Of a stretch of 64,000 nt of DNA, positions 30,185-64,000 are shown piece by piece. The position numbers and the translations under genes are program-made. Every line of letters starts with the position of its first letter. The first letter of the stretch is position 1. The notes beneath the pieces were generated by a model. It saw only the letters and a program-made list of their open reading frames with translations, was not told the origin of the DNA and did not search any database. The stretch is from Candidatus Magasanikiibacteriota bacterium (GTDB taxonomy: Bacteria; Patescibacteriota; Patescibacteriia; Magasanikbacterales; UBA922), in contig DAOOSC010000001.1 of the NCBI GenBank assembly GCA_035389585.1, positions 6,290-70,289 on the forward strand, read 5' to 3'.

Positions 30185-30209
30185 TTGATAGTAAAATATA
30201 AATAAAATT

Positions 30210-30494
30210 ATGGCACTTTTCTTTGTCGGTATCATTGAGATGATAATCGTCAGTGTTTGGACAAAAGTCGTCACGGATTCCAAAATCATTGCGAGTGGGG
30301 TCGTCACCATCATTAATATTCTTATTTGGTATTATGTGCTTGAAAAAGTAGTGAGCGATATTGGTAATTGGAAATTGGTAGTATTATACGCTTTTGGTTG
30401 CGCGCTTGGGACGATGATGACAACAGCGTATTATAAGTACCAGGAAAAGAAAGCACCACCTAAAAAAGAAAACGTCAGCAAGTTGGTTGGTTAG
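30210..30494 (+). CDS. Small membrane protein of 94 aa
   Basis: Two or three hydrophobic helices and a Lys/Pro-rich C-terminus. Confidence 0.45.
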   Translation: MALFFVGIIEMIIVSVWTKVVTDSKIIASGVVTIINILIWYYVLEKVVSDIGNWKLVVLYAFGCALGTMMTTAYYKYQEKKAPPKKENVSKLVG

Positions 30495-30543
30495 AGCAAT
30501 CAATAGTTTGCTCGAATTAGGCATTAGGCTATTTTGAAATGTT

Positions 30544-33423: not shown

Positions 33424-33429
33424 ATTTAT

Positions 33430-33741
33430 ATGACCATACCATCAACCTTATCATCGATTGGCGATACATTGAAAAATAAATTTGGTAATCAAGCGGGTGT
33501 TGCGAAAGGCGTGGAGGCCGCGCAGATCATCGAGGTTGCTCAGAAAATCATGGATAAAATTTTTTCTCCTGAATTGGCGGCGCTCATGAAACCGCTCTTC
33601 ATGAAAAACCGCACATTGACAATTTCGTGTAGCAGTTCCGCGGTGGCGCAGGAATTACGCCTTCATCAGAACGAAGTGGTAGAGCTCATGAACAAGGAGA
33701 TTGGTCGCAATGAAATTGACCGGGTGCGATATTTGTGTTAA
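33430..33741 (+). CDS. DUF721/DciA-like protein
   Basis: About 100 aa with a 'RTLTISCSSSAVAQELRL' core resembling the DUF721 (DciA) consensus. Confidence 0.5.
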   Translation: MTIPSTLSSIGDTLKNKFGNQAGVAKGVEAAQIIEVAQKIMDKIFSPELAALMKPLFMKNRTLTISCSSSAVAQELRLHQNEVVELMNKEIGRNEIDRVRYLC

Positions 33742-33806
33742 TCGGTAGCGTATCTTGCCAAAAATTGGTAAAAAGGCTACAATAGTTAGGCTAAAATTTC
33801 GTCTTT

Positions 33807-47270: not shown

Positions 47271-47521
47271 GTTTAGAGGTAGGGAGGTGGGAGGATATCC
47301 AGTCCAGTGAAGCCTTGGCTGGATTGAGGTATATAAGAGGCGTCGTTTAATGAAACTTATGCGACGCCACAGAATATGGCTTCATAAACCCAAGGTATAG
47401 AGTGTCGTCTTTTTGTTTAAATTTTCAGGACGAAGAAAATAGGATGGTTGTTATGAGGCTTCCCTTGCTTAGGTATTTGTTTTATGAGCCACTTATTGTG
47501 CTGGTATTCACCTGTTTAATG

Positions 47522-47655
47522 TCAAAGTTCAAATTACAAATTTCAAATAAATGCCAAAACTAAAAGTTCAAATACCCGCAAAGATTGTAAATGGATATTT
47601 GATATTTTGATTTTGGCATTTGACATTGATTTGTTATTTGTAATTTGAACTTTGA
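47522..47655. repeat. Long imperfect palindrome with 20-bp perfect outer arms and 11-bp inner arms
   Basis: tcaaagttcaaattacaaat at 47522-47541 pairs with atttgtaatttgaactttga at 47636-47655. Nested inside, aaatgccaaaa at 47549-47559 pairs with ttttggcattt at 47611-47621. Confidence 0.6.
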
Positions 47656-47771
47656 GGTTAGTCAAAACGCACTCGACCTAACCTTTCTCTATTCTCCATC
47701 TCACCCACCGCTCTCTTCTCTACCTAATAAAATATTGTGCGACACCTAAATAAAAGAGGCGACTATTTATT

Positions 47772-49019
47772 TTAGTTTGGAAGGTAAGCGAGAGGATTCA
47801 CTGGGATGCCATTTTTGCGACATTCGAAGTGGAGGTGAGGGCCGGTGACGAATGGTCCAGCTCCAACTGTGCCCGGTGTTCCTCCAGAGGCGCCGATTAT
47901 ATCCCCTATCGTCACAAATTGATCTTCTTTCACATAAATACTGCTCAAATGTCCATAGACAGTTGACAATCCCCCACTATGCACGATCATGACATAACTA
48001 TAACATGAAGCGAGTGAACAGGTTTTCGCGCGGGCGATATATCCAGAACCAGCGGCTTTGACTGGGGTGCCTTGTCCAGCGCGGACATCAATGCCATTGT
48101 GCTCAAAAACGTTTCTATAGGGGTAGTCTGGGTCGTGGAAAAATGACGTGACAACACGGCTCGGTACCGGCCAATTAAATACACCACCGCTTTCCATTTC
48201 GGCATTAATTTTTTTCTGTGATTCGAGTTTTTTTCGTACTTCTTGTTCAATGGATTCAATTTCACCTTCGATTGCCTGATACTGGCTTTTTTGATTAGCG
48301 AGGAGGGTTTTGTATTTGAGTTCGGAAGATTGAGTTTGGGCGAGAAGATTTCCTTTGAGAAAACCTTGTTCTTCGAGTTTCTTTTTTTTCAATGCAAGTT
48401 CTTCGCTGGTTTTTTTGTAGGCAGTTTCTCGCTCTGTGGCAATGTTTTTCTTTTCGTCCAATTCTGATTTAGAAATTTTAATACCTCTTACATTGGTGCC
48501 GAGATTTCTTTCAATATTTTCTAGGTATTGGATACGATTGTAGAAATCAGAGAAATTGTCGTAAGTGGCGGCAATTTGAATATAATTTCGGTTTTCTTGA
48601 AGATAGATTGTTCGGATCAGTTCGGCGAGCATTTTTTGTTGTTTCGCGATGCTAGCTTCTTTGTCCTGGATTGACAGATCGAGAGCGGAAATTTCGAGCT
48701 GAATTGATGAGAGTTGAGTCTCGGTAGCTTCGATATCAAACTCGACCTGACGTGTTTGGTTGTCTAAAATTGAAATTTGATTAGAGAGTGAGACAGCTTC
48801 TTTACGTTTAGCATCGATTTTTTGTTTGAATTCTTCAATGCTTTTTTCGAGTTGTTTGATCTTGTCTCGTTTTTCGGTAATTTTCTGGTTCAAGGTGTCA
48901 ATTTCAGCAGAGTTCCCCCCTACACCGCTATTCGTTAGCGCAACTGATTTGGAGGGAAAAGAAAAGACTGATCCGAAAATGGCCAGGAAAAATATAGTAA
49001 TTAAATACCGGTATTTCAT
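47772..49019 (-). CDS. Peptidase M23 protein with an N-terminal coiled-coil (EnvC-like architecture but catalytically intact)
   Basis: A signal/TM segment, about 250 aa of heptad-rich coiled coil, and C-terminal M23 with 'HNGIDV' and 'PHLHFE'. Confidence 0.8.
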   Translation of the reverse strand: MKYRYLITIFFLAIFGSVFSFPSKSVALTNSGVGGNSAEIDTLNQKITEKRDKIKQLEKSIEEFKQKIDAKRKEAVSLSNQISILDNQTRQVEFDIEATETQLSSIQLEISALDLSIQDKEASIAKQQKMLAELIRTIYLQENRNYIQIAATYDNFSDFYNRIQYLENIERNLGTNVRGIKISKSELDEKKNIATERETAYKKTSEELALKKKKLEEQGFLKGNLLAQTQSSELKYKTLLANQKSQYQAIEGEIESIEQEVRKKLESQKKINAEMESGGVFNWPVPSRVVTSFFHDPDYPYRNVFEHNGIDVRAGQGTPVKAAGSGYIARAKTCSLASCYSYVMIVHSGGLSTVYGHLSSIYVKEDQFVTIGDIIGASGGTPGTVGAGPFVTGPHLHFECRKNGIPVNPLAYLPN

Positions 49020-49058
49020 AATACTGGTATTATATCACATGATTTGTTTTTCAGAAAA

Positions 49059-50546
49059 TTAAGCAGATAACTTCGTGATAGCTTTTTTCAAGCGAGCCAA
49101 AGTTTTCTCTGATCCCAGGACAGCCATGATTTCAAACGACCCTGGAGATTTCTCGAGGCCGGAGAGCGCGACTCGAAGCGGCCAGAGTATATCCCCATTA
49201 GTCAGTCCGTTGTCCGCGATCCATTTTTTAGTTTCCGTCTCCAAAATTTCTTTTTTCCACTCGCCTTTCCACTCCGACAAAAATCCCTGGATCAATTCCA
49301 AATTTTTCAAAGCATCTGTCCGATTTGATTTCTTCCAAACTAAAATTTCCGGGGGATAATCGGTCGGTTCGCTAATCAAATACCCAACGGCCGTTGTAAT
49401 TTCATCGAGCCGCGCGACTCTTTCTTTTTCGAGAGATAGCGCAGGAATTATTTCCGATAATTTTTTTTTATCAACTTCGTTTGGCACGAGTCCCGCTTTG
49501 GCCAAATACGGCCAACAAGCGAGTGCAAACGACTCCGCTGACATTAGTTTGATATATTGTTTATTGTACCAGTCTAGTTTTTCCAAATTGAACACTGCCC
49601 CTTTTTTTGCCGTCTTCTCGATTGAATAATCCTGAATCAATTCCGCGAGCGAGTACATTTCCTTTTCTCCGCCAGGATTCCAACCTAAAAAGGCGACAAA
49701 ATTTATAAGCGCCTCCGGCAAATAGCCCTTTTTACGATAATCATCAACCGATACATCACCCTGTCGTTTGGATAATTTGGAACCATCTGTATTTAACAAA
49801 AGTGGTAGGTGAGCAAATGCAGGGATTTCCCAACCAAAATATTTATATAATTGCACGTGCTTTGGTGTCGAAGACAACCATTCTTCGCCGCGAATAATGT
49901 GCGTAATTTCCATGAAATGATCATCCACGACCACAGCGAGATGATATGTCGGGAAACCATCAGACTTCAAAATCACCTGATCATCAATCAATTCATTTTT
50001 GAACACCACTTCTCCGCGAATCAAATCATTAATTTTTGTTTCGCCCGTTCGTGGCATTTTCATGCGTACGACAAATTTTTCTCCCGCCTTGATTCGAGCC
50101 TCAGCTTCTTCGCGTGTCACATTTCGACAATTTCCATCATAACCAGTCGGCTGTTTATTCAATTCTTGTAATTTTCGCACTTCATCCAATCTCTCAGCCG
50201 AACAAAAACAATAATACGCGTGATCATTGGCAATTAATTCGTCAACGTATTTTTTGTAAATTGGTAAACGTAGTGACTGGGTGTACGGACCATTTTCACC
50301 TGCTTCAGACGGTTCACCATCCGCGCCTCGGACGACTCCTTCGTCTGGCACGACACCTGCCCAGTATAATGATTTCAAAATATTTGCAACTCCATCATCT
50401 ACAAAACGCGCGCGATCAGTATCTTCAATACGTAAAATAAAATGACCAGATTTTTTTTTGGCTAATAAATACGCATAAAGAGCGGTGCGTAAACTACCGA
50501 TATGTAAATACCCCGTTGGTGATGGCGCGAATCTAGTTTTAATCAT
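49059..50546 (-). CDS. gltX: Glutamate--tRNA ligase
   Basis: The 'RFAPSPTGYLHIGS' HIGH motif and the 'KLSKR' KMSKS motif. The start was chosen at the internal ATG preceding the HIGH region. Confidence 0.85.
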   Translation of the reverse strand: MIKTRFAPSPTGYLHIGSLRTALYAYLLAKKKSGHFILRIEDTDRARFVDDGVANILKSLYWAGVVPDEGVVRGADGEPSEAGENGPYTQSLRLPIYKKYVDELIANDHAYYCFCSAERLDEVRKLQELNKQPTGYDGNCRNVTREEAEARIKAGEKFVVRMKMPRTGETKINDLIRGEVVFKNELIDDQVILKSDGFPTYHLAVVVDDHFMEITHIIRGEEWLSSTPKHVQLYKYFGWEIPAFAHLPLLLNTDGSKLSKRQGDVSVDDYRKKGYLPEALINFVAFLGWNPGGEKEMYSLAELIQDYSIEKTAKKGAVFNLEKLDWYNKQYIKLMSAESFALACWPYLAKAGLVPNEVDKKKLSEIIPALSLEKERVARLDEITTAVGYLISEPTDYPPEILVWKKSNRTDALKNLELIQGFLSEWKGEWKKEILETETKKWIADNGLTNGDILWPLRVALSGLEKSPGSFEIMAVLGSEKTLARLKKAITKLSA

Positions 50547-51285
50547 AGTGTTTGAAAAAATATTTGAAATTCTGTAATGTAAATACGACTGTGGCGCGAT
50601 ATATCCGTCCAATTCGTTTCGGTTCACAAATCAAACGCCATAGCCATTCTAGCCCAATTTTGCGTAAAAAGCAAGGCGCACGGCGCTGTACACCAGCGAT
50701 CATGTCGATCGATCCGCCGACCCCCATCATGATGCGAACACTCGGGAAATCTTTCTTGTGTTTCATAATCCATTTTTCTTGCTTGCCATGACCAAAAGCG
50801 ACAAATACTATTTCCGGCGCCGTCATAATTATCTGATTGATTGATTCTTCATCGACTGATTCATCAGTAATCTTTCCCGACTGATCGAAATGCGGACCGA
50901 TATTTGTGCCAGAAATAATTATTCGTGGATACTTTTCTTTAATCTTCGCAACCGCTGTGCCCAAAGTTTTCTGATTCCCCGTACCGAGCAAAAATATTTT
51001 CGATGATTTTTCATTTGCAATTTCTAGAATATCCCTCATGAGTTCAACGCCTGGATAACGTGGTAAATGACCTCGTGTCAGTATAGTAATACCAGAACCA
51101 TCCGCGACATTCAGGTCAGAACTATTTAATACGTGTGCGAATTCCCCATCTTTGCGTGCCAATACAATCATCTCCGGATTAGGTGTGAAAATCGTTCGAA
51201 CTTTATTACCATTCAAAAAATCACGCACCTGTGAAAGCACCTCTGTCGGTAGTTTGTTTGTAATTTCAATTTGACTGAATTTCAT
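50539..51285 (-). CDS. WecB/TagA/CpsF family glycosyltransferase (GT26)
   Basis: The C-terminal 'EWLWRL..EPKR' motif and overall length of about 250 aa. An alternative upstream start is at 51330. Confidence 0.75.
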   Translation of the reverse strand: MKFSQIEITNKLPTEVLSQVRDFLNGNKVRTIFTPNPEMIVLARKDGEFAHVLNSSDLNVADGSGITILTRGHLPRYPGVELMRDILEIANEKSSKIFLLGTGNQKTLGTAVAKIKEKYPRIIISGTNIGPHFDQSGKITDESVDEESINQIIMTAPEIVFVAFGHGKQEKWIMKHKKDFPSVRIMMGVGGSIDMIAGVQRRAPCFLRKIGLEWLWRLICEPKRIGRIYRATVVFTLQNFKYFFKHYD

Positions 51286-51291
51286 GGATAC

Positions 51292-51320
51292 TTGACAAAT
51301 AAGGAAAGCTTTGCTATGAT
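51292..51320 (+). promoter_or_regulatory. Sigma70-like promoter (TTGACA-N17-TATGAT)
   Basis: Read directly. It overlaps the divergent GT26 start region. Confidence 0.45.
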
Positions 51321-51380
51321 GTTTAGTCATTATGACCGCATCTCATGAGGGGTGCGAACTGTTCTTTTGGAGGTATTTTC

Positions 51381-51758
51381 ATGGAATCGATGCCGTTCGT
51401 TTTCGTGGCTCATGAAGGTGGACCTACTCAGCACGCACCCAATCGCCTATCCGTTGCGGAAGGCGTAGCAAAATTGGTAAATGCTGTACTGCCCTCGCGA
51501 GATGTCCTGCCACGATCTGCTGTGTTATTGATCGAATTAGAAGGAAATGTCCGTGGCCGTGAAGATACAGTCACCGTGCTCACTCTGGAAATCCTCAGGA
51601 TGGTCCAGAGTATCCTCAGCGGATTAAGAATCAAACACAACGATGTGAAAGAAATCTGCAATTTTGAGAGTTTGCATACCTACGATTTGGTGGGCAGACC
51701 ATATGCAATCTCCGGTCTGCGAGTCTCCCTCAGTATAGACCCATCTAATAGAGGGTAA
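51381..51758 (+). CDS. Hypothetical protein of 125 aa
   Basis: A GGAGG RBS 7 nt upstream, a promoter upstream and a terminator downstream. No domain was recognised. Confidence 0.5.
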   Translation: MESMPFVFVAHEGGPTQHAPNRLSVAEGVAKLVNAVLPSRDVLPRSAVLLIELEGNVRGREDTVTVLTLEILRMVQSILSGLRIKHNDVKEICNFESLHTYDLVGRPYAISGLRVSLSIDPSNRG

Positions 51759-51797
51759 ACACACCCGCAACTAGAGCAAAAGACCAACAGACATCCT

Positions 51798-51823
51798 ATC
51801 ACCCTCCGGGGTGATATTTTTTA
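51798..51823 (+). terminator. Rho-independent terminator
   Basis: Stem atcaccc / gggtgat with a 4-nt loop, followed by ATTTTTTA. Confidence 0.65.
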
Positions 51824-51870
51824 CCCCAAAAATTTAAAGACACTAATTTTCCCTCATATTCTACCACAAT

Positions 51871-51898
51871 TTGACAATTTTGTGAAGCGTGTTATACT
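51871..51898 (+). promoter_or_regulatory. Sigma70-like promoter (TTGACA-N16-TATACT) for clpB
   Basis: Read directly, about 65 nt upstream of the clpB ATG. Confidence 0.5.
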
Positions 51899-51900
51899 AA

Positions 51901-51926
51901 TTATCACTCCCCCGCCCCGAGTGACA
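51901..51926. promoter_or_regulatory. CIRCE-like inverted repeat (ttatCACTC-N9-GAGTGacag), a candidate heat-shock operator
   Basis: A CACTC-N9-GAGTG core immediately downstream of the -10. Compare the CIRCE consensus TTAGCACTC-N9-GAGTGCTAA. Confidence 0.4.
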
Positions 51927-51962
51927 GGTGGAGCAATAATATACCCTAAAAATAGCCAATAT

Positions 51963-54593
51963 ATGAGTACAAATAACTTTACCAAAAAAACCCAAGAGGC
52001 GCTCGAAAATGCGGCGCAACTCGCCCACAGTCACCACCTCCCCCAAGTGGAGCCGCCCCACATTTTCGCTGCAATCGTAAATGACGATGGCGGTGTAGTC
52101 TCGGCCGTGCTCCAAAAATTGAATATCGATATCAATAGTGTGCGTAAATTCGCCATGTCTCTCGTCACTGGCATGCCTCGTGCCGACGGTCCGATTCCGA
52201 TGCTGAATATGCACCAAATCATGCTCGGGCAAAATGCGATGAACATTCTGAATCTGGCAGGTGTCGAAGCTCAAAAAATGGGAGATGAATATATGAGTGT
52301 AGAGCACCTACTGCTCGCATTTTTAGTTAATAAAAATCCCGTCAGTGAGTATCTCATAAAACTCGGTGCCTCATATGACGAGACTTTGAAAGTCCTCGCC
52401 ACGGTCCGCGGTACCCAAAAAGTTGATTCACCTGAACCAGAAAGTAAATACCAAGCGCTAAAAAAGTACGGAAAAAATCTGACGGACCTCGCAAAAAAAG
52501 AAAAACTCGATCCCGTCATCGGTCGTGACGAAGAAATTCGTCGTGTCATGCAAGTCCTCTCGCGCCGTACAAAAAACAACCCAGTCCTTATCGGCGAACC
52601 AGGTGTCGGTAAGACGGCGATTGCCGAAGGTTTGGCACAACGAATCGTCAATGGCGATGTTCCGGAAAGTATTCGCGATAAAGAAGTCATTTCACTCGAC
52701 GTCGGTGCACTCGTCGCTGGGACGAAATTTCGTGGCGAGTTTGAAGATCGTTTCAAAGCGGTTTTGAAAGAAGTGATTGATTCTGCGGGTAAAATTATTC
52801 TCTTCATTGACGAATTACACTCCATCGTCGGCGCTGGCGGATCCGAAGGCGCAATTGATGCGAGCAATATGTTGAAACCGGCGCTCGCCCGCGGTGAATT
52901 ACATACTATCGGGGCGACCACACTGAAAGAATACCAGAAATATATCGAAAAAGACGCCGCTTTCGAAAGACGTTTTCAACCCGTCCTCGTGAAAGAACCA
53001 TCTACCGAAGACACGGTTGCGATTTTACGTGGTATCAAAGAAAAATATGAAATTCATCACGGTGTCCGAATCACTGATGCCGCGATTGTCGCCGCCGCTA
53101 ATTTGTCCAGTCGATATATCACCGACCGTTTTTTGCCGGACAAAGCGATTGATTTGATTGATGAAGCGACTTCGGCTTTGCGCATGCAAATTGATTCGAT
53201 GCCAGAGGACCTCGATATCATGAAACGCAAAATGATGAAAATTGAAATCGAATTGCGTGCTCTAAAAAAAGAAACTGATAAAGATGCCCAGGATCGGGCG
53301 ACGAAACTGAAAGAAGAATTGGCAAATTTGAAAGAAAAAAGTTCTGGACTCGAAATTCAATGGCGCAATCAAAAAGAAATTATTACCAGTATTCGTGAAC
53401 ACAAAAAAGAAATCGATAAATTGCGTCAACAAGCCGATATCGAAGAACGTCGTGGTGATTTACAAAAAGTCGCCGAGATTCGTTATGGTAAAATTCCGAC
53501 CATGGAAGAAGCCATCCGCGGAGACGAAAATCATCTCGCCGAATTACGCAAAGAGCGGGCGATTTTGAAAGAAGAGATTACCGAGACTGACATCGCAGCC
53601 GTAGTGGCGCGCTGGACCGGCATTCCCCTATCCAAAATGCTCCAAGATGAAGTGAAGAAATTAGCGTACATGGAAAGTGATTTGAAAAAACGCGTCATCG
53701 GCCAAGAAGAAGCCATTACCGCCATTTCAAATGCGATTCGTCGTTCACGGGCTGGTATATCCGAAGAAAAACGCCCAATCGGCTCGTTTATCTTCATGGG
53801 GCCGACTGGTGTCGGTAAGACTGAACTCGCGAAAGCCTTGGCGGAATTTCTTTTCAATGATGAAAATTCTCTCGTTCGAGTAGACATGAGTGAATACATG
53901 GAGAAACATGCCGCGAGCAAAATGATTGGTTCCCCTCCTGGCTATGTCGGCTTCGACGAAGGTGGCCAGCTCACCGAGATTATTCGCCGTCGTCCATATT
54001 CGGTAATTCTATTTGATGAAATCGAAAAAGCGCATCCTGATATTTTCAATATGATGCTCCAAATTTTGGATGACGGTCATCTGACTGATGCAAAGGGTCG
54101 CAAAGTAAATTTCAAAAACACTGTCATAATCATGACGAGTAATATCGGTTCGGAATACATGATGGAACTAGACAAACGTGGCGACCTCGGCTTTGGTGAT
54201 AGTGCGAAATCAGAAAAGAAGGAAGATAAAATGAAAACCCGTATCATGGACGCACTACGTGAACGCTTTCGTCCAGAATTTTTGAATCGCATCGATGAAA
54301 TTATCACATTCCACCCATTGAATGAAAAACAAATTCGCACCATTGTCGATTTACAAATCGCTCATGTCGCGAAACGTCTCGAAGTACGCCACATCACTCT
54401 CCGCATTTCAGAAAAGGCAAAGGATTGGCTCGCGAAAAAGGGCTATGATCCGAACCTGGGGGCACGCCCGTTGAAACGTGTCATTCAGACCGCGGTGATG
54501 GATAAGCTGGCTATGGCCATAATTGAAGAAAAAATAATCGATGGTGCTGTTGTAAAAGTGGAGATAGTGAAAGGTGAAATTGAAATAAAATAG
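51963..54593 (+). CDS. clpB: Chaperone ClpB (Hsp100, two AAA+ modules with a middle coiled-coil)
   Basis: The Clp_N repeats, two Walker A motifs ('GEPGVGKT' and 'GPTGVGKT'), and a long M-domain coiled coil. Confidence 0.9.
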
Positions 54594-55292
54594 AAAACAG
54601 TTTAATTAAAAAAGATGGTAATCCCCTCTTTTTTAATTATCCACACAGACTCTTTGACGATGTCTGTATTTGGGTGTATCATTAATTCCAATCACGACGA
54701 CGGGTGTCGCCCAGCAATCAGAGGTCTCACCTCGAAGCTGAAATAAGCCTGTTTCGTGGTTTGTTCCTGTTTCCGGTAGAGGTAGAATAAGCGGAGCGAA
54801 TAGTCCGAGGCCTGAGCGCTCAGCTCCTCGGCGCAATGTCCGCGAAAAACCTCTCGATACCAATGAATGGTGTCGGTATGTGGGTCAGTAGTGCGTGCCC
54901 CTGCATACGCCAATGTTCCGGAGTGGCTGATGATGGCACTAAAATCAGCGTTTGGTCAATGACCAGACCAAAGGAAGGTGGCTTTTGGGTCATGTACAAG
55001 ACACAGTTAGACTGGTGAGTACACAGAAGTCGCGGTGCTGTTCGTGGTTCTATTTCATGGGGGGGGGAAAGTCATGGGGTACTTTTCCCAACGCTTGGCT
55101 AGTTAGCTCATTGTTTAACAACCCCAAGATTGTCCATATCGATGGAAAGGCACTTGTTTCAGGAGTTTTAGTGCTGGAATCCGAGATTGTCGATGTGGAT
55201 AGTCACTCTCTCTAAGGACCGGGTAGTAATACCGGTCCTGTTTTTTTATTAGAACTGTCAATAGCGATGGATTTGTGTTATACTATACTTCT
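54594..55292 (+). other. GC-richer region of about 700 bp lacking a convincing CDS. It contains a DnaA-box-like TTATCCACA at 54644-54652 and a G9 homopolymer at 55059-55067, and ends in a strong + strand terminator.
   Basis: Only short overlapping ORFs in multiple frames, a composition unlike the neighbours, and a terminator at 55217-55250. Confidence 0.4.
55217..55250 (+). terminator. Rho-independent terminator
   Basis: Stem ggaccgg / ccggtcc with a 9-nt loop, followed by TGTTTTTTT. Confidence 0.7.
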
Positions 55293-57563
55293 ATGAATAA
55301 ATCTTCCAATTTGGCCAAACTCGGCTTAAATATATTTTTTTTAGCATCACTTTTGGCGATACCACTCTCTCCTGTTTTCGCTTTTGACCCTACTCACATA
55401 CTGTCCGACGAAGAAATGCAAAATTGGCAATGCATGTCGAAATCCGACGTACAGAATTTTTTGGATTTTCAAGGTGGGAAGATTGCTTCGATGAAGATCG
55501 ATGATGGGGCCGGCAAAAAAAGGCCGATTTCAAGTATTATTTATGACACGGCGAAGAAATATCAAATCAATCCGAAATACATTCTCGTCACTCTCCAGAA
55601 AGAACAAAGTCTCCTCACCGCCAAAAATCCGACACAGAAACAGTTAGATTGGGCGGCCGGTTATGCGATTTGTGATAGTTGTAGTATGGACGATCCAGCT
55701 CTGCAGTCCCACAAAGGGCTATTCAACCAAATTGACAGCGCCGCCGGCCTCATGCGTTGGTATTATGACAATGTCACTACAAAACCTTGGATCAAGCGTC
55801 CACAGTTCGAATATACTATCGATAGCACTTTGGTTAGGCCGAAATCATACGCGACCGCTTTCCTATACACCTACACGCCACATATTCAGGGCAATCAAAA
55901 CTTTTGGACTCTGTGGCAGAAATGGTTCGAACAGACTTATCCGGGTGGAACATTACTCCGGAGTACCGCGAGTGATGTTGTTTATTTAATTCAAAACGGC
56001 AAAAAACGCCCCATCACTACTCCAGGTGTGCTTTCTTCGCGTTTCGATCCGAAGTCGGTAATTATCGTGGCAGAATCAGAATTGGGGAGGTATGATGTAG
56101 GGCCAGAAGTGAAATTCCCCAATTATTCTATTTTGAAAAATGGTGAGCAATATTATTTGTTGGATTATGATAATTTGCGTCCGTTCGCGAATGCGGAAGT
56201 GGTGCGCCAAATTGGCTATAACCCAGAAGAAATTATCGAAGTGGCTCCCGCTGATATTCGTGGATATGAGATTGGTGAGACGATAAATTTGGAAACCACC
56301 GATCCGACGGGGCGAATGGTTAAATTTGCCAGTGGAAAAATTTATTTGGTGAAAAACGGCACACTCTTCCCTGTACCACATTCCATAATTGCTACCAAAA
56401 GTTTTCCAGATTTGAAAATTGAAAAAGCCAACCAAGCTGATTTCGTCAGCTATCCCATCGGCGATGAAGTACTTCTGCCTGATGGTACACTATTCTCTCT
56501 CCGGGGGGACAAAAATGTCTATGTGGTGGATAATGGCGCGAAACGTTTGATTCCAGATGAGATGACATTCAAAAATCTCGGTTATAAATTTTCGAGTGTG
56601 ATCACTGTGCCGGCTGTGGTCGCTAATATGCACCGAAAGGGTTTACCGATGTCAGCCGCTCGCCTCGCAATGGTTTCGAAGTCAGCTGGTTCTGTGGAAG
56701 TGGGATTGGCCGCAGAAAAAAGTAATGTGACTACTCTGAAAATTGAAGAAGGGAAAATGGCATCAGTGCCAAAAAATAAAATTGTTTATGAAGGAGAAAA
56801 GAAAGTCACCTTGAAGACTGATACTTATTTGGTGGCGGATTATTCCACAGGTGCAATTCTCGCGGCGAAAAATATCGATGTCGTTCGTCCACTAGCTTCT
56901 CTCACCAAAATAATGGCAGCGAAAGTAATGTTCGATAACGCTCTGGATTTGGATGGGGTGACAACTTATGATGTGGGGAAAATGAGATCTGCTCACAAAG
57001 ATTTGCGTATTGTCGCGGGTGAAAAAATTGTCAACAAAGATTTGATGGATTCATTTCTGGTCTCGTCTCTGAATAGTGCTGGTCCGATGCTGGTTTCGTC
57101 TGTCAGCGAAAACGAGAAAATGTTTGTTCAAAAAATGAACGATGCGGCTATGAATCTGGGCCTCTCTAATACTAAATTTACCGATTCTTATGGGTATGAT
57201 CTTGGAAATTTGGCAACGGCGCGTGAATATTTACCGATTTTTTTGGCTGGTGTGAATGAACAGAAAATTTTTGAATATTTGAGCAAAACGGATTATTCAT
57301 TTGAAGAATTGCTTGATTTAGACGGTAGCCCAACACATTTTGACGATAATACAAACCTGTTGCTCAAAAAAAGTAATTTACCATATAAAATCTTGGCCAG
57401 TAAGACCGGCTATCTAAATGAGTCGGGAGCAAATTTGGCGATGCTCATTGAGAGACCAAAAGATGGCAAAAGGTTCGTCTTGATCACAATGGGTAATCCA
57501 GATTACAAAAACCGCTTTAACGATCCGGATTTATTGGCCCGCTTTACAATTGCCAATTTTTGA
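55293..57563 (+). CDS. Secreted protein with a large N-terminal domain and a C-terminal D-alanyl-D-alanine carboxypeptidase (peptidase S11, PBP5-like) domain
   Basis: A signal peptide, an 'ASLTKIMAA' SxxK motif, and an 'SGN' region. An extended -10 (TGtTATACT) lies upstream. Confidence 0.7.
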   Translation: MNKSSNLAKLGLNIFFLASLLAIPLSPVFAFDPTHILSDEEMQNWQCMSKSDVQNFLDFQGGKIASMKIDDGAGKKRPISSIIYDTAKKYQINPKYILVTLQKEQSLLTAKNPTQKQLDWAAGYAICDSCSMDDPALQSHKGLFNQIDSAAGLMRWYYDNVTTKPWIKRPQFEYTIDSTLVRPKSYATAFLYTYTPHIQGNQNFWTLWQKWFEQTYPGGTLLRSTASDVVYLIQNGKKRPITTPGVLSSRFDPKSVIIVAESELGRYDVGPEVKFPNYSILKNGEQYYLLDYDNLRPFANAEVVRQIGYNPEEIIEVAPADIRGYEIGETINLETTDPTGRMVKFASGKIYLVKNGTLFPVPHSIIATKSFPDLKIEKANQADFVSYPIGDEVLLPDGTLFSLRGDKNVYVVDNGAKRLIPDEMTFKNLGYKFSSVITVPAVVANMHRKGLPMSAARLAMVSKSAGSVEVGLAAEKSNVTTLKIEEGKMASVPKNKIVYEGEKKVTLKTDTYLVADYSTGAILAAKNIDVVRPLASLTKIMAAKVMFDNALDLDGVTTYDVGKMRSAHKDLRIVAGEKIVNKDLMDSFLVSSLNSAGPMLVSSVSENEKMFVQKMNDAAMNLGLSNTKFTDSYGYDLGNLATAREYLPIFLAGVNEQKIFEYLSKTDYSFEELLDLDGSPTHFDDNTNLLLKKSNLPYKILASKTGYLNESGANLAMLIERPKDGKRFVLITMGNPDYKNRFNDPDLLARFTIANF

Positions 57564-57596
57564 GGCAAAATACCTATATAACTAATTGTTAATTGT

Positions 57597-58391
57597 ATGT
57601 CTCTAGCCTTCGCCGCCATTACTCCTCACCCACCGATTTGTCTGCCCAGTATCGGTGGAAACGACCTAGTAAAAGTTCAAGCGACTCGGACCGCTCTCGC
57701 CCGTCTCGAGCAGGATCTCTACATTGAGAAGCCTGATATTATTGTGGTAATTTCACCACATGGAGGGATATTTCGTGATGTTTTTACTTTGAATGGTTAT
57801 ACTGAATTTACCGCAGATTTTACGGAATTTGGCGACATGGTGACGACCCACAAATGGGCGGGGGCGACAAATTTTGCTTCAATTTTTTATAATCATAATA
57901 GTGCTAAAGAAGTACCCATGCAACTTATTGCCGATCCAAAACTTGATCATGGGGCCGCTATTCCACTCATGTTTCTGACAGATCATTTGCAGGCAGTGAA
58001 GATCTTGCCGGTTGGGTATAGTGAATTGTCACCACTTGCCCATCTCGCTTTTGGGGAAGCCCTGAAAGATATGATCATGGAGAGTGACGCACGAGTGGCT
58101 GTGATTGCCTCTGGCGATTTATCTCATGCGCTCACGAGCGATTCACCGGCTGGTTTCAATGCGGCTGGAGCGGAATTTGACCAGCAGTTAATTAAAATGC
58201 TTGAGACGAGAAATACGGTTGGAATTGCACAGATGAACCAAGAACTGGTGAAAAATGCGGCGGAGTGTGGCTATCGTTCCATTTTGATACTTTTGGGCGT
58301 TTTGAAGAATATGAATTATTCGTTTGAGAATTATGCTTACGAGGCGCCATTTGGTGTGGGGTATTTGACAGGAAATTTTGTTTTAAATTGA
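57597..58391 (+). CDS. Class III extradiol dioxygenase family protein (LigB/YgiD-like)
   Basis: The 'HPPI', 'SPHG' and 'SGDLSHAL' blocks align with the metal-binding His residues of the LigB family. Confidence 0.6.
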   Translation: MSLAFAAITPHPPICLPSIGGNDLVKVQATRTALARLEQDLYIEKPDIIVVISPHGGIFRDVFTLNGYTEFTADFTEFGDMVTTHKWAGATNFASIFYNHNSAKEVPMQLIADPKLDHGAAIPLMFLTDHLQAVKILPVGYSELSPLAHLAFGEALKDMIMESDARVAVIASGDLSHALTSDSPAGFNAAGAEFDQQLIKMLETRNTVGIAQMNQELVKNAAECGYRSILILLGVLKNMNYSFENYAYEAPFGVGYLTGNFVLN

Positions 58392-60313
58392 AAACCATTG
58401 TGATCGCAGAAGTCACCCTGCTTCGGCGCATGGTGCGGCGTCTTGATTTTTTTGATTACGCTGTGCCGGCAGAAATGGAGTCGGGAATTCAGGTGGGAGT
58501 AGTAGTGAAAGTGCCTTTTCGCAAAAGCATTGAGTTTGGTATTATTAAAGGAGTTTCCACTGAACCTGCCCGTCCAAATTTGAAACCAATTGGAGAAATA
58601 CTTGGTCCTCAACCGATTTTTGAGAAGGATCAATTAGAGGTTATGATTGGTTTGGCTCATTTCTATGGAGTCTCTTTATCAAACATTTTGAACCTCGCTC
58701 TCCCTACCCTCGGGATCAGGCGTCTCACAGCGCTCACGCGTCGCCAGAAAGTGGTGGTAGAAAAAAATAATTTAGAAAAAGAATTCGAAGCTCCTTTGGA
58801 ATATTTTTTATATAAAAATGAAAAAGAGCGATTGAATTATTTTGTTGACAAGTGCGGATCATGTCGAAAGGCTATTATTCTCCTGCCACAAGTCGTTGGA
58901 GTTAACCCCCTCGTCGAGGAATTGACTGAAAAACTATCACACCACACCATCATCCCCTATCACTCCGATTTGACCGAAAAACAGCGGGCGGAAAACTATT
59001 TTTCATTTCTCGAAAATCCCAAAGCTGTGCTCGTGGGCACGAGGATTGCGGCATTCGCGCCACTGATTGGAGCGGATCGTATTTTCATCGATCGCGAGCA
59101 GGACGATGATCACAAAAGTTGGGACGCGGCACCACGATTTGACGCGCGTTTCGTGATGCGAATTTTCGCTTTGCGCAGTCATGTTCCACTCTCATTCATG
59201 AGTTTTTCCCCTTCAGCGGATTCATATTTCCGTGTTCACAAAGGATTTGTCTCAGGTTCAATCGAACCGTCGCCGATCAACCGGGCTACTTGTGTTGATA
59301 TTTCATCAGAAAGTCGTTTTGGAAATTTGGATCTACTTTCGACCAACACTTTCACCCGCATGCAAAAATGTTTGGAAAAAAACACCGATGTTTTGGTTTT
59401 TGTTAATCAAAAAGGTGTAGCGAGTGGTATGTATTGTCGTAATTGTGGCCACGATCTGATTTGTCCGAAATGTAAAATAAATTATGCGGTCGGGCGTGAG
59501 AACAACCTCAACTACTTGGCATGCCGACGCTGTCTCGGTCATGAGAAAATGCCGAGCACTTGCCCGAACTGTCATTCTGACAAATTAAGTACACGCGGTG
59601 CGGGGGTAGATAAAATTGGTGAAGCAGTAATTAATTGGGTGGAGAAAAAACAATTGAAAAACAAAGTGGAAATTATTTCGGCGGATGATGGTGTGAACAA
59701 AAATAAAAAGAACGAAAAGAGTTTTGATGATTCAGTGGCGCGAATTTTTGTTGGCACAGAAGCAATGTTATCACGCCCAATTTGGGGCAAAGCTGGTCTC
59801 GCGGTAATTTCCAGTTTTGATCGAATGCGTAATTCCCCAGACTATCTCGCCGATGAGAGGGCTTGGCAATTGATTACTCATGCTCATTATCTACTGCCCG
59901 AGACAGGCGAGGTCATCATTGAAGCGCGTGAACCAAAACACTATATTTTGCGCTCTCTCATCGAGCCGCATCGTTTCTACCGCTTGAACCTCAACATGCG
60001 CCAAACCGCTACTTTCCCTCCCTATACTCTCCTCGTCAAATATATGGTCGGAAACAGCGACCCACTGAAGGCCGAGAAATCTGCCAAACAAGCCGTGGTT
60101 GAGCTGAAATTGGCATTGACAAAAAACAATGTTTCTGCTAGTATTTCAGGTCCGACCGAGTCTATACCGAAGGTTCGAAATGGCCAGTATTATTACGTAA
60201 TTTTAGCCAAATTTAAGCCAGACATCGCTTTTGATGCGGTGGCCGCGATTCATCGTGCTCTCGACCCCGAGATCAAAATTGACCCAAATCCGATGAGTCT
60301 GTATAATCCTTAG
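58388..60313 (+). CDS. priA: Primosomal protein N' (PriA) homolog with degenerate ATPase motifs
   Basis: The N-terminal 3'-DNA-binding domain ('AEVTL...YAVP'), the characteristic Cys-rich region (CRNC...CPKC...CRRC...CPNC), and a helicase-core alignment. 'YKNEKERLNY' replaces Walker A and 'DREQDD' replaces DEEH. The ORF-track start codon is TTG. Confidence 0.7.
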   Translation: MKTIVIAEVTLLRRMVRRLDFFDYAVPAEMESGIQVGVVVKVPFRKSIEFGIIKGVSTEPARPNLKPIGEILGPQPIFEKDQLEVMIGLAHFYGVSLSNILNLALPTLGIRRLTALTRRQKVVVEKNNLEKEFEAPLEYFLYKNEKERLNYFVDKCGSCRKAIILLPQVVGVNPLVEELTEKLSHHTIIPYHSDLTEKQRAENYFSFLENPKAVLVGTRIAAFAPLIGADRIFIDREQDDDHKSWDAAPRFDARFVMRIFALRSHVPLSFMSFSPSADSYFRVHKGFVSGSIEPSPINRATCVDISSESRFGNLDLLSTNTFTRMQKCLEKNTDVLVFVNQKGVASGMYCRNCGHDLICPKCKINYAVGRENNLNYLACRRCLGHEKMPSTCPNCHSDKLSTRGAGVDKIGEAVINWVEKKQLKNKVEIISADDGVNKNKKNEKSFDDSVARIFVGTEAMLSRPIWGKAGLAVISSFDRMRNSPDYLADERAWQLITHAHYLLPETGEVIIEAREPKHYILRSLIEPHRFYRLNLNMRQTATFPPYTLLVKYMVGNSDPLKAEKSAKQAVVELKLALTKNNVSASISGPTESIPKVRNGQYYYVILAKFKPDIAFDAVAAIHRALDPEIKIDPNPMSLYNP

Positions 60314-60320
60314 TATAAAT

Positions 60321-60812
60321 ATGTTAAAAATAGTCACTCTCCCCGATCCTCGATTGCGCACCAAATCAGTGCCTCTCGACCCGGAGAAATTAAAAACCGA
60401 CGAATACAAAAAAATCATTGCCGAAATGACTGATTTGATGTACAAGTCAGATGGTGTGGGCATTGCTGCGCCACAAATTGGTATCAACAAAAGATTTTGC
60501 ATCATTGGTAAATTAGGCATTGAAAAAGATAAAAAATCTGGAGTGAAGGTCGCTGATCTCGTCCTCATCAATCCGACCTGGACCAAAATTTCCCGAAAGA
60601 AAAATTCTGAAGTAGAAGGTTGCTTATCGGTGCCACACACTTTCGGTACAGTTAGCCGATTGTCGGAAATCCGCGTCCACGCGTTCGATTTGGATGGCCG
60701 ACCGCTTGAATTTATCGCTCATGGATATTTCGCGCGCGTCATCCAACACGAAGTTGACCATTTGGACGGAATTTTATTTATTGATCGGGCGACGGGTGTG
60801 TATAATGATTAA
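60321..60812 (+). CDS. def: Peptide deformylase
   Basis: The 'GIAAPQIG', 'EGCLSVP' and 'HEVDHLDG' motifs. Confidence 0.9.
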   Translation: MLKIVTLPDPRLRTKSVPLDPEKLKTDEYKKIIAEMTDLMYKSDGVGIAAPQIGINKRFCIIGKLGIEKDKKSGVKVADLVLINPTWTKISRKKNSEVEGCLSVPHTFGTVSRLSEIRVHAFDLDGRPLEFIAHGYFARVIQHEVDHLDGILFIDRATGVYND

Positions 60813-60814
60813 TT

Positions 60815-61744
60815 ATGAACAAAACCCCCATAATATTTTTTGGTTCACATAATTTCGCTGCGCGGATTTTGCAAACTCTGATTGATTCAGATAATTTTGA
60901 AATAAAACTCGTCATCACCCAGCCTGACCGACCAGTCGGACGAAAAAAAATACTCGAATCAACTCCCGTGAAAGTTTTGGCAAATGCTAATTTTCTGCAA
61001 GTGATCGATCCCGAGAGTCTGCGTAAAACAAAAATTGAATTGCCTGATGCTGAAGTCGCGATTTGTGCTCAATACGGTCTCATCATTCCTCAATATGTCC
61101 TCGATGCGCCACAGCGCGGGATTATAAATGTCCACACTTCCCTATTACCGAAATATCGTGGCGCCTCACCTATTCAGAGCGCTCTCATGAACGGTGAAAC
61201 GCAAACTGGCGTCACAATCATGCTCATGAACGCCGGACTCGATACAGGGCCGATTTTGAAACAAAAGACCGTTGCAATTGAACCGAACGACACATACCTC
61301 ACACTCGAGAAGAAATTAGTTGAAGCAGGATCGAAATTAATTATCCCGACGACTTTGGAATACCTCGCGGACACAATCAAGCCAATCCCTCAAAGTGACA
61401 CTGAAATGACAACATGTCGTGAACTGACCCGCGATGATGGGCGAATTAATTGGCAGACCATGAGGGCTACCCAAATATTCAATCTCTGGCGCGGTCTAAC
61501 ACCATGGCCGGGTGTTTGGACAACTTGGCAGGGAAAGCGCCTGAAACTGCTTGAAATTGCGCCTACAACACATGCAGGTATAATTGCTGGACAGATCCTC
61601 ATCGAAAATGACCGAGTTTTCGTAGGTGCGATGAACGAATCCTGTATTGAACTCCAAACAATTCAACTCGAAGGAAAAAATGCCACTTCTGCTCGTGATT
61701 TTATTCGCGGTGCAAGAGATTTTAATGGCTCTAAACTCAAATAA
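60815..61744 (+). CDS. fmt: Methionyl-tRNA formyltransferase
   Basis: The 'INVHTSLLPKYRGASPIQ' formyltransferase motif and the def-fmt gene order. Confidence 0.9.
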   Translation: MNKTPIIFFGSHNFAARILQTLIDSDNFEIKLVITQPDRPVGRKKILESTPVKVLANANFLQVIDPESLRKTKIELPDAEVAICAQYGLIIPQYVLDAPQRGIINVHTSLLPKYRGASPIQSALMNGETQTGVTIMLMNAGLDTGPILKQKTVAIEPNDTYLTLEKKLVEAGSKLIIPTTLEYLADTIKPIPQSDTEMTTCRELTRDDGRINWQTMRATQIFNLWRGLTPWPGVWTTWQGKRLKLLEIAPTTHAGIIAGQILIENDRVFVGAMNESCIELQTIQLEGKNATSARDFIRGARDFNGSKLK

Positions 61745-61747
61745 TTT

Positions 61748-63220
61748 ATGCATCGCAAACTTGGGCCGGCCATTATCACTTTTGTTGCCGTTTATATTTT
61801 GGCACGCGTTTTATCATACCTCACCTACGGATCCATCGTACTGACAAGTATTATTTCGGCTGTCGTTGCGATTTACTTTGTTTACATATATTTCCGCGAA
61901 CCCCGTCTCGTCCTGCCTTTTATTATTGGCGAGTGGCTACTTGGTGGCAATGGCGGTCTCTTCCAATTCTTCGGACTCTCTCTACGCACCCTACTCATCG
62001 TCATGTTTATTTTTCTCTGGCTTATCGATTTCACGAATCAACGCAAATTTTGGAGTTCAATTTTACCTCAGCCTTGGCTCAACCGAATTCTCGCAACACT
62101 CGGTATATTTATTATTTTTAGTACAGTACGCGGACTGTTTTTGGGAAATTCCCCGGTCGACGTCATGCACGACCTCATTCCGTTCACATACTTGATAGTA
62201 CTATTTCCTCTGATATATTTTTGGCACGAATTCGAAAGCGAACAAGCATTCGGCTATATTGTCGCCCTCGTCTATGCCTACATTGTCGGTACCGCTCTCA
62301 CTTCCCTTTTCACACTATTTGCTTTCTCTTACGGCGGTGCGCTGATTCATGGGGACTATTACTTATGGTTCAGAAATATTTTGGCAGGAAAAGTCACCGC
62401 TCTCTCGAATGGTTTCTATCGTGTCATCGAACCAGCTCAGATGTGGCTCGTCCCGATTGTCGCCGTTCTCGTCGCCCTCGTCGGCAAAAACAGGTCGAAA
62501 TTTTCCACCTGGTTTGTATTAATGATGGCATTTATTCCCCTCGCAATTAATTTATCCCGCACATACTACATTGCGATATTTTTTGCTACTCTCACCCTAA
62601 TCATATTTAGCGGTGAATGGAAAAAATGTTTTGTCGGTGCACTGAAGAGCGCTGTCTTGTTTCTCGTTGTTCTGTTTGTCATTGCGATTTCGGCGACTGG
62701 TGCACGATCATTCGGAGTTGATTTACTACTCTCTCGCGTCGCTGGTGATGCTGATGGTGGTTCAGCAGAATTGTCCGTACTTTCACGTGAATTGCGCCTG
62801 CCGATTATATTTGAAAAAATTTCACTCCACCCAATTGCTGGTAACGGCATCGGCTCTCGTCTCGATGTTTACGATCCAGTCACTGAGACAAATGTTTCCA
62901 CATCCCAATATGATTGGGGTTATCTCGAAATGATTTCCGAATTAGGGATAATCGGGACAATCCTGCTTTGTGGTTTGTGGTTTTATACCGCCATCCGCTC
63001 TGCTTCACAAGCCCGAAAAGAAAATCACCCATCCGAAAGAATTTTCAAATGGGGTATTTTTGCTGGTGTAATTGGATTGTGTATTGCTAATATCTTCGCA
63101 CCGATCATGTATCACGCCATGGGAATAATTTTCTTGATTGTCGTTCTGATTCTCATTTCCGAAAAACTTTCTCTCATTCGTCGCATTGGAGTTTCTTTCG
63201 AAGCCCTAGCGCAAGACTAA
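61748..63220 (+). CDS. Polytopic membrane protein, O-antigen ligase/polymerase-like (Wzy_C-like)
   Basis: About 12 TM helices and a periplasmic loop with 'HPIAGNGIGS', reminiscent of the O-antigen ligase domain. The assignment is tentative. Confidence 0.5.
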   Translation: MHRKLGPAIITFVAVYILARVLSYLTYGSIVLTSIISAVVAIYFVYIYFREPRLVLPFIIGEWLLGGNGGLFQFFGLSLRTLLIVMFIFLWLIDFTNQRKFWSSILPQPWLNRILATLGIFIIFSTVRGLFLGNSPVDVMHDLIPFTYLIVLFPLIYFWHEFESEQAFGYIVALVYAYIVGTALTSLFTLFAFSYGGALIHGDYYLWFRNILAGKVTALSNGFYRVIEPAQMWLVPIVAVLVALVGKNRSKFSTWFVLMMAFIPLAINLSRTYYIAIFFATLTLIIFSGEWKKCFVGALKSAVLFLVVLFVIAISATGARSFGVDLLLSRVAGDADGGSAELSVLSRELRLPIIFEKISLHPIAGNGIGSRLDVYDPVTETNVSTSQYDWGYLEMISELGIIGTILLCGLWFYTAIRSASQARKENHPSERIFKWGIFAGVIGLCIANIFAPIMYHAMGIIFLIVVLILISEKLSLIRRIGVSFEALAQD

Positions 63221-63925
63221 TCCGTGTTTTTTGGCGATCACACGACGCGCTTCCTCGTACTTCTTCACACGCTCACGCCACATCGGTAAAAATTTGAACG
63301 GCCACTTGTATGAAAAACTCGGCATCCAGCGACTAATCACGCCGGTATCTTCGAGTGCATAGAGAACTTCGGGGACATGAACGCCGACCGCGCCTTTCTC
63401 TGTGAACATGAGCCAGAGATCCCAATCTTGAAACTTTTTGATTGTCGTATCCCAGCGTATTTCGAGACGAAGCAGTGATTCACGACGAATAAGTGCCGAA
63501 GAATGGATATAGTTTCGTTCGCGCAATGCTTGTGCATCGAACTTTCGTGCCTGCATCAGGTGTTTTCCGAATTTGTAATCTGGATAGGCAAAATCGGCAT
63601 TGCTTTTTTCGATTGCCTGAATGAGACGTTCGATCATCGTTGGTTCGGCCATGAGATCCGCATCCCAAAATATTACATATTTTCCAGTACTTCGATCAAA
63701 CCCTCGATTACGCGCCACAGGACCACCCGCATGCACTTGTTTTTCATAATTGATATTCAGTTGTCCCCTGAATTCAGTTACTACTCCGGCGACATCTTCC
63801 GGACAATCATCGCTCACTACAAATACTTCCAGATCTTTCATTGTTTGAGCGAGCAGTGTTCGCAGACTTTTTCGTAAAACATCGGCACGGTCTCGGACAG
63901 GAATGATAATACTAACTAAAGGCAT
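63206..63925 (-). CDS. Glycosyltransferase family 2
   Basis: The 'VSIIIPVRDR' GT-A start and a DxD region ('VSDDCPED'). Confidence 0.8.
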   Translation of the reverse strand: MPLVSIIIPVRDRADVLRKSLRTLLAQTMKDLEVFVVSDDCPEDVAGVVTEFRGQLNINYEKQVHAGGPVARNRGFDRSTGKYVIFWDADLMAEPTMIERLIQAIEKSNADFAYPDYKFGKHLMQARKFDAQALRERNYIHSSALIRRESLLRLEIRWDTTIKKFQDWDLWLMFTEKGAVGVHVPEVLYALEDTGVISRWMPSFSYKWPFKFLPMWRERVKKYEEARRVIAKKHGLVLR

Positions 63926-64000
63926 ACTAGGAAAGATATTTTATGATTTTTTTGAGTTGAACTTGCCAATTAAATTCCTTGAATAATCTTTCGCGAGCAT

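Follow-up and report, generated by a model that had tools for sequence, protein, structure and literature searches.

In a 64-kb stretch of DNA from a Candidatus Magasanikiibacteriota bacterium (64,000 nucleotides, hereafter the window), the gap between clpB (51963–54593, + strand) and the gene for a 756-residue Peptidase_S11 protein (ATG at 55293, + strand) probably carries, on its + strand, the gene of a highly folded non-coding RNA of ~559 nt. The gap is non-coding, a homologous element is present in a second species, and four helices have been kept in both by compensatory changes on an RNA whose strand is the + strand. A preliminary description of this DNA had listed a structured non-coding RNA (ncRNA) among several explanations, and it is this explanation that our analysis supports, based on the compensatory changes in the four helices and on a promoter-like site and a terminator that frame the transcript. 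The same description had called the stretch after clpB rich in GC and poor in open reading frames (ORFs), which was correct: 54594–55274 is the longest segment of the window without an ORF of at least 110 residues, its GC content (0.467) is the highest among the window's gene-free gaps (the others range from 0.20 to 0.43), and its core (54690–55219) has a GC content of 0.504, which puts it at the 97th percentile among segments of 530 nt. The original gene caller placed no gene between clpB and the Peptidase_S11 gene. The window and two further assemblies (L013 and L014, making three assemblies from three samples) are 100% identical across 10.7 kb, including a run of nine Gs (G9) in the gap; the gap sequence is therefore no assembly artefact, while as one strain these assemblies carry no information on variation.

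None of the marks of a protein-coding gene or pseudogene that we looked for (a database homologue, gene-like codon usage or conservation at the protein level) was found in the gap. Its ORFs are, as had been described, short and overlapping, in conflicting frames and on both strands. The region's translations had no Pfam matches at family cut-offs, and no match at E ≤ 10 was obtained when nine stop-to-stop translations, taken from all frames, were compared as one set with 5.8 billion proteins. A full HMMER search with the 90-codon frame containing the ORF at 54952–55215 against 1.84 billion representatives returned three matches, all to tandem-repeat junk and with E-values inflated by the summing of repeats. 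By a codon-usage score trained on the window's 38 long ORFs (10 of which use TGA as their stop, so that the genetic code is the standard one), the ORFs of the region scored −0.08 to −0.25 per codon, i.e., in the range of off-frame sequence, versus +0.22 ± 0.14 for real genes.

The homologous element was found with the last 170 residues of ClpB, which identified a 1645-nt Logan contig (L015) carrying a clpB fragment (P0138, 85% identical). In this contig clpB is followed by an orphan gene of 202 residues with its own promoter, and then by an ORF-poor, strongly folding stretch of ~490 nt that ends in a long hairpin and U7; the element itself occupies L015 1118–1565, 3' of clpB, has a folding z-score of −6.5, and shares no protein-level similarity with its counterpart in the window. 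An nhmmer search aligned window 54653–54766 with L015 1075–1209, and single-sequence covariance models built from the window only also found L015, that of the 5' domain with 24.8 bits (E-values of 3.5e-4 in 65 kb and 2.3e-3 in 424 kb) and that of the 3' hairpin, at L015 1468–1560, with 25.0 bits (3.8e-6). At the four-fold degenerate sites of clpB only 17 of 39 are identical between the window and L015; neutral divergence is thus near saturation and unconstrained DNA should be almost unalignable.

As modelled from the two sequences, the RNA would consist of a conserved 5' domain (a 66-nt stem-loop closed by a helix with a bulged C, P1, and then UUCCUGUUU), a centre made up of a fast-evolving set of hairpins, and a conserved 3' domain in which an H-type pseudoknot is followed by a single spacer base, present in both species, and a long hairpin on a 16-bp helix (Table 1). 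In the window P1 pairs CACGA-C-GACGGG with CCUGUU-UCGUG, and the distance from CAC to GUG is 60 nt in both species. The pseudoknot likewise has one topology in the window and L015, with one or two bases in loop 1, 31 nt in loop 3, and zero bases between the 5' strand of stem S2 and the 3' strand of stem S1. Over the four helices (P1, S1, S2 and the 16-bp helix) there are 39 comparable pairs, with changes on both sides in 14, on one side in 6, and none broken, i.e., the helices have been kept across species by compensatory substitutions. As a control the 3' partners were slid by 1–3 columns, upon which pairing dropped to 17–64%: P1, counted here over 12 pairs, was 97% paired as aligned vs. 28–38% when slid, the pseudoknot (3 countable both-side changes) 100% vs. 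36–64%, and the 16-bp helix 100% vs. 17–46%. A third covariance model, combining S1 with the 3' hairpin, aligned the S1 of L015 poorly, its score falling to 21.5 bits, so S1 rests on direct reading. A pairing of UUCCUG with the loop sequence CAGGAG, seen in the window, was dropped as it had no clear counterpart in L015.

Table 1. Features of the clpB–Peptidase_S11 gap and its borders, with the corresponding positions in the L015 contig where these were assigned.
Feature	Window position	Strand	L015 position	Basis and remarks
AT-rich inverted repeat TAATTAAAAAAGATGG / CCCTCTTTTTTAATTA	54603–54639			directly 3' of clpB stop; 16-nt arms, 94% complementary
Perfect DnaA box TTATCCACA	54637–54645	+		8 nt 5' of −35 hexamer
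Sigma-70-type promoter-like site TTGACG-17-TATCAT	54654–54682	+		sequence match
Predicted structured ncRNA transcript, ~559 nt	54689–55247	+	1118–1565	folding, homology to L015
5' domain	54693–54758	+		P1 and apical hairpin; covariance model
P1	54693–54704/54748–54758	+	1125–1136/1180–1190	bulged C kept in both; 11 comparable pairs, 4 both-side and 1 one-side changes
Single-stranded UUCCUGUUU	54764–54772	+		identical in both species; 5 nt 3' of P1
Variable central region	54773–55058	+		predicted hairpins, e.g., 54778–54854, 54855–54875, 54876–54908, 54926–54949, 54950–54968
G9 tract	55059–55067	+		longest G or C run in 64 kb; next is G7
H-type pseudoknot	55064–55126	+		all pairs standard in both species
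Pseudoknot stem S1	55064–55072/55081–55089	+	1421–1426/1434–1439	6 comparable pairs, 2 both-side and 2 one-side changes
Pseudoknot stem S2	55075–55080/55121–55126	+	1428–1433/1471–1476	6 comparable pairs, 4 both-side and 0 one-side changes
Long 3' hairpin	55128–55204	+		16-bp basal helix, inner 3-bp and 6-bp helices, 15-nt loop with CAGGAG
16-bp helix	55128–55143/55189–55204	+	1478–1493/1537–1552	16 comparable pairs, 4 both-side and 3 one-side changes
Near DnaA box CTATCCACA	55194–55202	−		strand of 16-bp helix
Intrinsic terminator AGGACCGG / CCGGUCCU	55215–55247	+		read from sequence, folding
Putative Peptidase_S11 promoter CTGTCA-18-TATACT and ATG	55255–55295	+		sequence match; same layout in L006

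The folding energy of the element lies well below that of shuffled sequences, with a z-score of −3.1 for 54640–55255 on the + strand and weaker or absent signal on the minus strand. Among its parts the 5' domain scored −3.10, 54855–54985 scored −3.63 and 54773–54860 scored −1.9; the score of 54986–55127 (−0.82) was not significant. The 3' hairpin scored −3.08 on the + strand vs. +0.38 on the minus strand, and the 16-bp helix in the window includes five G-U pairs. The RNA strand is therefore the + strand, and this asymmetry suggests that it is the RNA, and not the DNA, that has been under selection.

Matches to a promoter upstream and an intrinsic terminator downstream were found on this same strand. 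The −10 hexamer TATCAT stands exactly 4 nt 5' of TYCCAAYCACRRCGA in both the window and L015 (conserved as TYCCAAYCAC), the promoter-like site of L015 reads TTTGCA-18-TATCAT, and a −35 hexamer is usable in both species despite the insertion of 10 nt in L015. Transcription would start ~7 nt 3' of TATCAT, near 54689, and would stop at the hairpin and U7 that close the gap. The strong + strand terminator that had been described at the end of the gap was confirmed at the position given in Table 1; it has an 8-bp GC-rich stem (55215–55222/55232–55239), a 9-nt loop, a G and then U7 at 55241–55247, and a simple terminator scan (loops ≤ 8 nt) missed it because of its 9-nt loop. From these consensus matches and the conserved −10 box we infer that the ncRNA would be transcribed independently.

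Two DnaA boxes had also been noted in the gap. The near-match at 55194–55202 is present, on the minus strand, and the perfect box does exist on the + strand, but 7 nt to the left of the position first given for it (54637–54645 rather than 54644–54652). Read on the other strand, the near box (TGTGGATAG) forms the 3' side of the 16-bp helix; L015 reads CGTGAGTGG there, so it is no DnaA site. Over both strands of the window there are 2 perfect boxes vs. ~0.5 expected by an arithmetic estimate, and 30 boxes with at most one mismatch vs. 16.6 expected, with no clustering at the gap; based on these counts, chance alone could account for the two boxes in the gap. It would not account for the recurrence in L015 of TTATCCACA-N8-TTGAC, which occurs once in the window, once in L015 (1620–1641), and nowhere else among the 65 loci compared. 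It is possible that the perfect box is a regulatory site, rather than an origin, and from its place beside the −35 hexamer it may tie expression of the RNA to DnaA.

As to what the RNA does, we suggest only tentatively that it may be a stable RNA working in trans, as a regulator or as a scaffold for proteins, in the manner of large multi-hairpin RNAs like Staphylococcus RNAIII; the unpaired pyrimidine tract UUCCUGUUU, a candidate interaction site, and the exposed loops would then contact mRNAs or protein. We judge the chances about even that with this element a new class of large structured ncRNAs, specific to one lineage of the Candidate Phyla Radiation (CPR), has its first known member; such an RNA, with its conserved 3' domain of pseudoknot and long hairpin and, in this genome, a DnaA box beside its promoter, would serve as the scaffold of a ribonucleoprotein, as a ribozyme, or as a regulator of global reach tied to the cell cycle or stress response. 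CPR bacteria have very small, reduced genomes and largely unknown regulation, and an RNA gene of 450–560 nt is a costly item in such a genome; if it is expressed and further members are found, it would be a defined and testable RNA in an uncultured lineage.

Several observations weigh against an ncRNA gene. There are only two distinct members, the window and L015. It speaks for the element that structured ncRNAs are overrepresented in the long GC-rich intergenic regions (GC-IGRs) of AT-leaning genomes, and that the GC-IGR pipeline looks for just this trait (PMC6429828, PMC8632094); but in the ranking of such candidates at least 5 unique representatives with a good consensus model make a medium candidate, at least 20 a high one and fewer than 5 a low-ranking one (PMC11109978), which places ours, with two, among the low-ranking despite its clean compensatory changes. 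The alignments were partly fitted to the structure, 31–62 of 500 shuffles reached the observed values (a control that two rows make non-decisive), and with two sequences a formal covariation statistic is impossible. The central 290 nt show no demonstrable conservation; this region is longer than its counterpart in L015 and could not be aligned reliably by either global MAFFT or a structure-aware alignment. On the minus strand the 5' domain of L015 folds better still, both ends of the transcript are predictions, and the DnaA box of L015 lies 3' of the RNA copy instead of 5', so that a link to DnaA may not be conserved.

The searches for further members belong with these observations. No homologue adjoining clpB was found in L004–L011 or L062–L065 (L004–L011 being searched by blastn and nhmmer, several of L004–L010 together with L062 and L063 by covariance model, and L064 and L065 judged by gene layout alone). 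A scan for CCAAYCAC-N50–70-GTGNNNNNTTCCTGTTT in a metagenome collection that excludes the window's own species gave 46 loci, all of them chance matches, with at most 9 of the 11 P1 pairs and no nhmmer match, and two scans of viral collections returned zero matches. In a genome collection scanned with the S11 protein we obtained two distant relatives, one of which (L002) lacks the clpB synteny, and the element was in neither. Other relatives of clpB have different genes 3' of it. More distant relatives thus appear to lack the RNA beside clpB; the family may have members in a narrow clade only, or these may lie at other sites in other genomes. One of the loci searched, L062 (JGI 3300038404), has a clpB (1–2275) split into three ORFs and two gene-free gaps of 702 nt (2276–2977) and 1016 nt (4534–5549), neither of which matches the covariance models of the element.

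The main rival to an independent gene is that the folded RNA is a structured 3' extension of the clpB message (of the message of the 202-residue gene in L015), produced by read-through and perhaps stabilizing or processing that mRNA, which we consider unlikely. It would fit with the element being on the same strand and downstream of clpB in both species, with the hairpin directly after clpB (54603–54639) being weak and AT-rich, and with the only strong terminator being that at the far end of the gap; it is opposed by the conserved spacing of the −10 box and the usable −35 hexamer, by the layout of L015, in which a further gene, with a promoter of its own, separates clpB from the RNA, and by relatives that manage with a gap of 122 nt. 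In these relatives (L006–L008, with 76% identity in ClpB) clpB, S11, Memo and PriA follow each other in the same order as in the window, and the clpB–S11 gap consists of a terminator and then a promoter directly 5' of the ATG, so that the window has ~580 nt extra. This absence from the same site in syntenic relatives, the different placement of the element relative to the DnaA-box module in L015, a GC content above the genome average, and weak flanking inverted repeats (I2, 17 nt, 82%; I3, 13 nt, 85%) could also be read as signs of a mobile or selfish insertion, e.g., a miniature inverted-repeat element or its remnant, with palindromes kept at the DNA level. We regard such an insertion as distinctly improbable. 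Of the features of miniature inverted-repeat elements (terminal inverted repeats, a target-site duplication and multiple copies) only the weak repeats were found in the window and the loci compared: there was no second copy in the 64 kb or in those loci, no target-site duplication could be seen by eye, and blastn of the element against phage and plasmid collections gave no match. In addition, the right arm of I3 is part of a conserved RNA helix, the G-U pairs of the helices would be mismatched if read from the opposite strand, and the 3' helix of the window folds on the + strand only.

The remaining alternatives are each far less probable than a 3' extension of the clpB message. That the gap is a decayed protein gene, native or, as the preliminary description had proposed, horizontally acquired, might be suggested by a succession of ORFs of 59–87 residues in shifting frames on both strands and by a GC content above that of the neighbours; this did not hold up, as the Pfam and protein searches, the codon usage and the comparison of the homologues described above all came out negative, and the substitutions between the window and L015 keep base pairs rather than codons, making a decayed gene very improbable. 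Nor could we uphold the suggestion of a small phase-variable gene (54952–55215, or from an ATG, 55056–55215) switched by slippage of G9, for which there is next to no likelihood left. The G9 tract, which had been called rare, lies inside this ORF, no G or C run of the window is longer, and the ORF's stop codon abuts the terminator. But no ribosome-binding site was seen by eye 5' of the TTG or ATG start, the ORF has a codon score (−0.13) like that of off-frame sequence and matches only repeat junk in the databases, the homologous element in L015 has neither the ORF nor the G-run, and G9 has the same length in all three assemblies, although these are of one strain. In a contingency locus the homopolymer would sit in a functional ORF or a promoter spacer; here it is ~370 nt 3' of the −10 box. 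Its last four Gs (55064–55067) open stem S1, where L015 has GAGAGG and no homopolymer, and by this comparison G9 appears to have arisen by accident, in this one sequence, from a stem strand rich in purines, and not to be a slippery tract that is conserved. Equally hard to credit is a replication origin or other DnaA-dependent DNA element: the gap does contain one perfect and one near DnaA box, and gene orientation switches from − to + ~3 kb upstream, but there is no cluster of boxes (two only, the second being a strand of a conserved RNA helix), the gap is GC-rich with no AT-rich unwinding element seen, and the cumulative GC skew climbs from 0 to 4283 over 1–48 kb with no minimum at the gap. 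An ncRNA gene remains the best account of these data, and the lesson for annotation is that the G9 run and the second of the two DnaA boxes, which had first drawn attention to the gap, are ordinary strands of RNA helices.

The surroundings of the element also have features of their own. The AT-rich inverted repeat directly 3' of clpB is probably a weak two-way terminator of clpB, judging from its sequence, and an A-run/hairpin/T-run resembling it also stands 5' of the DnaA box in L015. The distal end of L015 (1575–1645) runs from this A-run/hairpin/T-run through TTATCCACA, 8 nt and TTGACA to the end of the contig, which is the module that precedes the RNA in the window; a second copy of the RNA or an S11 gene may follow there, and it is possible that an assembly break at a repeat ended the contig. 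The 202-residue orphan of L015 (396–1069) has a near-consensus promoter (TTGACA-17-TACAAT) and no Pfam family on record, and a tblastn search with it found no match in the window's element that would mark this as its pseudogene. On the other side of the gap the Peptidase_S11 gene appears nearly leaderless, the −10 sequence TATACT (55279–55284) ending 8 nt before its ATG with no Shine-Dalgarno sequence, and in its orthologue in L006 (7745–7765) TTATAAT is 6 nt before the ATG. As this gene has a separate promoter and almost no leader, the structured RNA is not its leader. A direct repeat, TGTCCATATCGATGGA (55131–55146) and TGTCAATAGCGATGGA (55256–55271), identical at 14 of 16 positions (chance ~0.08 by a rough estimate), joins the 5' strand of the 16-bp RNA helix with the −35 region of the S11 promoter, and could be a trace of the insertion's origin.

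Further afield, the closest relatives of the ClpB protein beyond its own species (74–77% identity) are named Candidatus Magasanikbacteria. Upstream of clpB, between a TTGACA/TATACT promoter and the start codon, there is an inverted repeat, TTATCACTC-N9-GAGTGACAG (51901–51927), that resembles the CIRCE heat-shock operator, which we take to be TTAGCACTC-N9-GAGTGCTAA; this suggests that clpB may be under HrcA control in this CPR bacterium. The window contains other ORF-free gaps of 360–500 nt with GC contents of 0.36–0.43 (47271–47771, 1059–1542, 33424–33806 and 30185–30543), which may hold small genes or further RNAs. The GC skew is ~+0.2 over 1–48 kb, near zero over 48–60 kb and negative after 60 kb, with a cumulative maximum at 59.8 kb; the pattern over 48000–64000 could represent the terminus side of a replichore or a rearranged segment.

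The scan of Rfam with Infernal that had been proposed as a check matched no family. Rfam 15 comprises 4227 families, including RNase P, tmRNA, 6S, SRP, OLE, ROOL, GOLLD, HEARO, raiA, group I and II introns and riboswitches, and in gathering mode it gave zero matches over the whole window; at E ≤ 10 the region 54400–55500 had only matches of 9–21 bits to eukaryotic, viral or enterobacterial families, far below threshold, and L015 had none at E ≤ 1. ARAGORN detected neither tRNA nor tmRNA genes in the window. The RNA thus belongs to no catalogued family, which does not refute it as an RNA, and a literature search found no large ncRNA in Patescibacteria, Magasanikbacteria or other CPR bacteria. 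We conclude that the element is most likely a narrowly distributed, new structured ncRNA of ~559 nt. Few bacterial ncRNAs exceed ~400 nt and have complex conserved folds, and those of them that have been solved are ribozymes, ribonucleoprotein machines or unusual assemblies.

Compared with the well-known stable RNAs, the element shares with RNase P RNA, tmRNA, 6S and SRP RNA that these are folded RNAs with pseudoknots, but its 5' and 3' ends are not paired with one another as are those of RNase P RNA and tmRNA. The sequence GGGGAAAGUC in the window superficially recalls an RNase P motif, of which we take GAGGAAAGUCC to be the consensus; L015 has no such motif. In architecture, and in architecture only, it recalls Staphylococcus RNAIII as we know it: ~0.5 kb in length, with its own promoter and terminator, a chain of hairpins, conserved 5' and 3' domains around a variable centre, and unpaired pyrimidine-rich motifs that could pair with purine-rich ribosome-binding sites. 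It differs from RNAIII in having no sequence relationship to it, no embedded peptide gene, and no known target or quorum-sensing context. The OLE, ROOL, GOLLD, raiA and HEARO classes, large bacterial ncRNAs whose functions are unknown or have only lately begun to emerge, have hundreds to thousands of members, whereas the window RNA has no Rfam match and is represented in two species of one candidate phylum only. It is nevertheless like these classes in being several hundred nt long and non-coding, in having many helices and a pseudoknot, and in standing out from an AT-leaning genome as a long gap that is GC-rich and free of ORFs.

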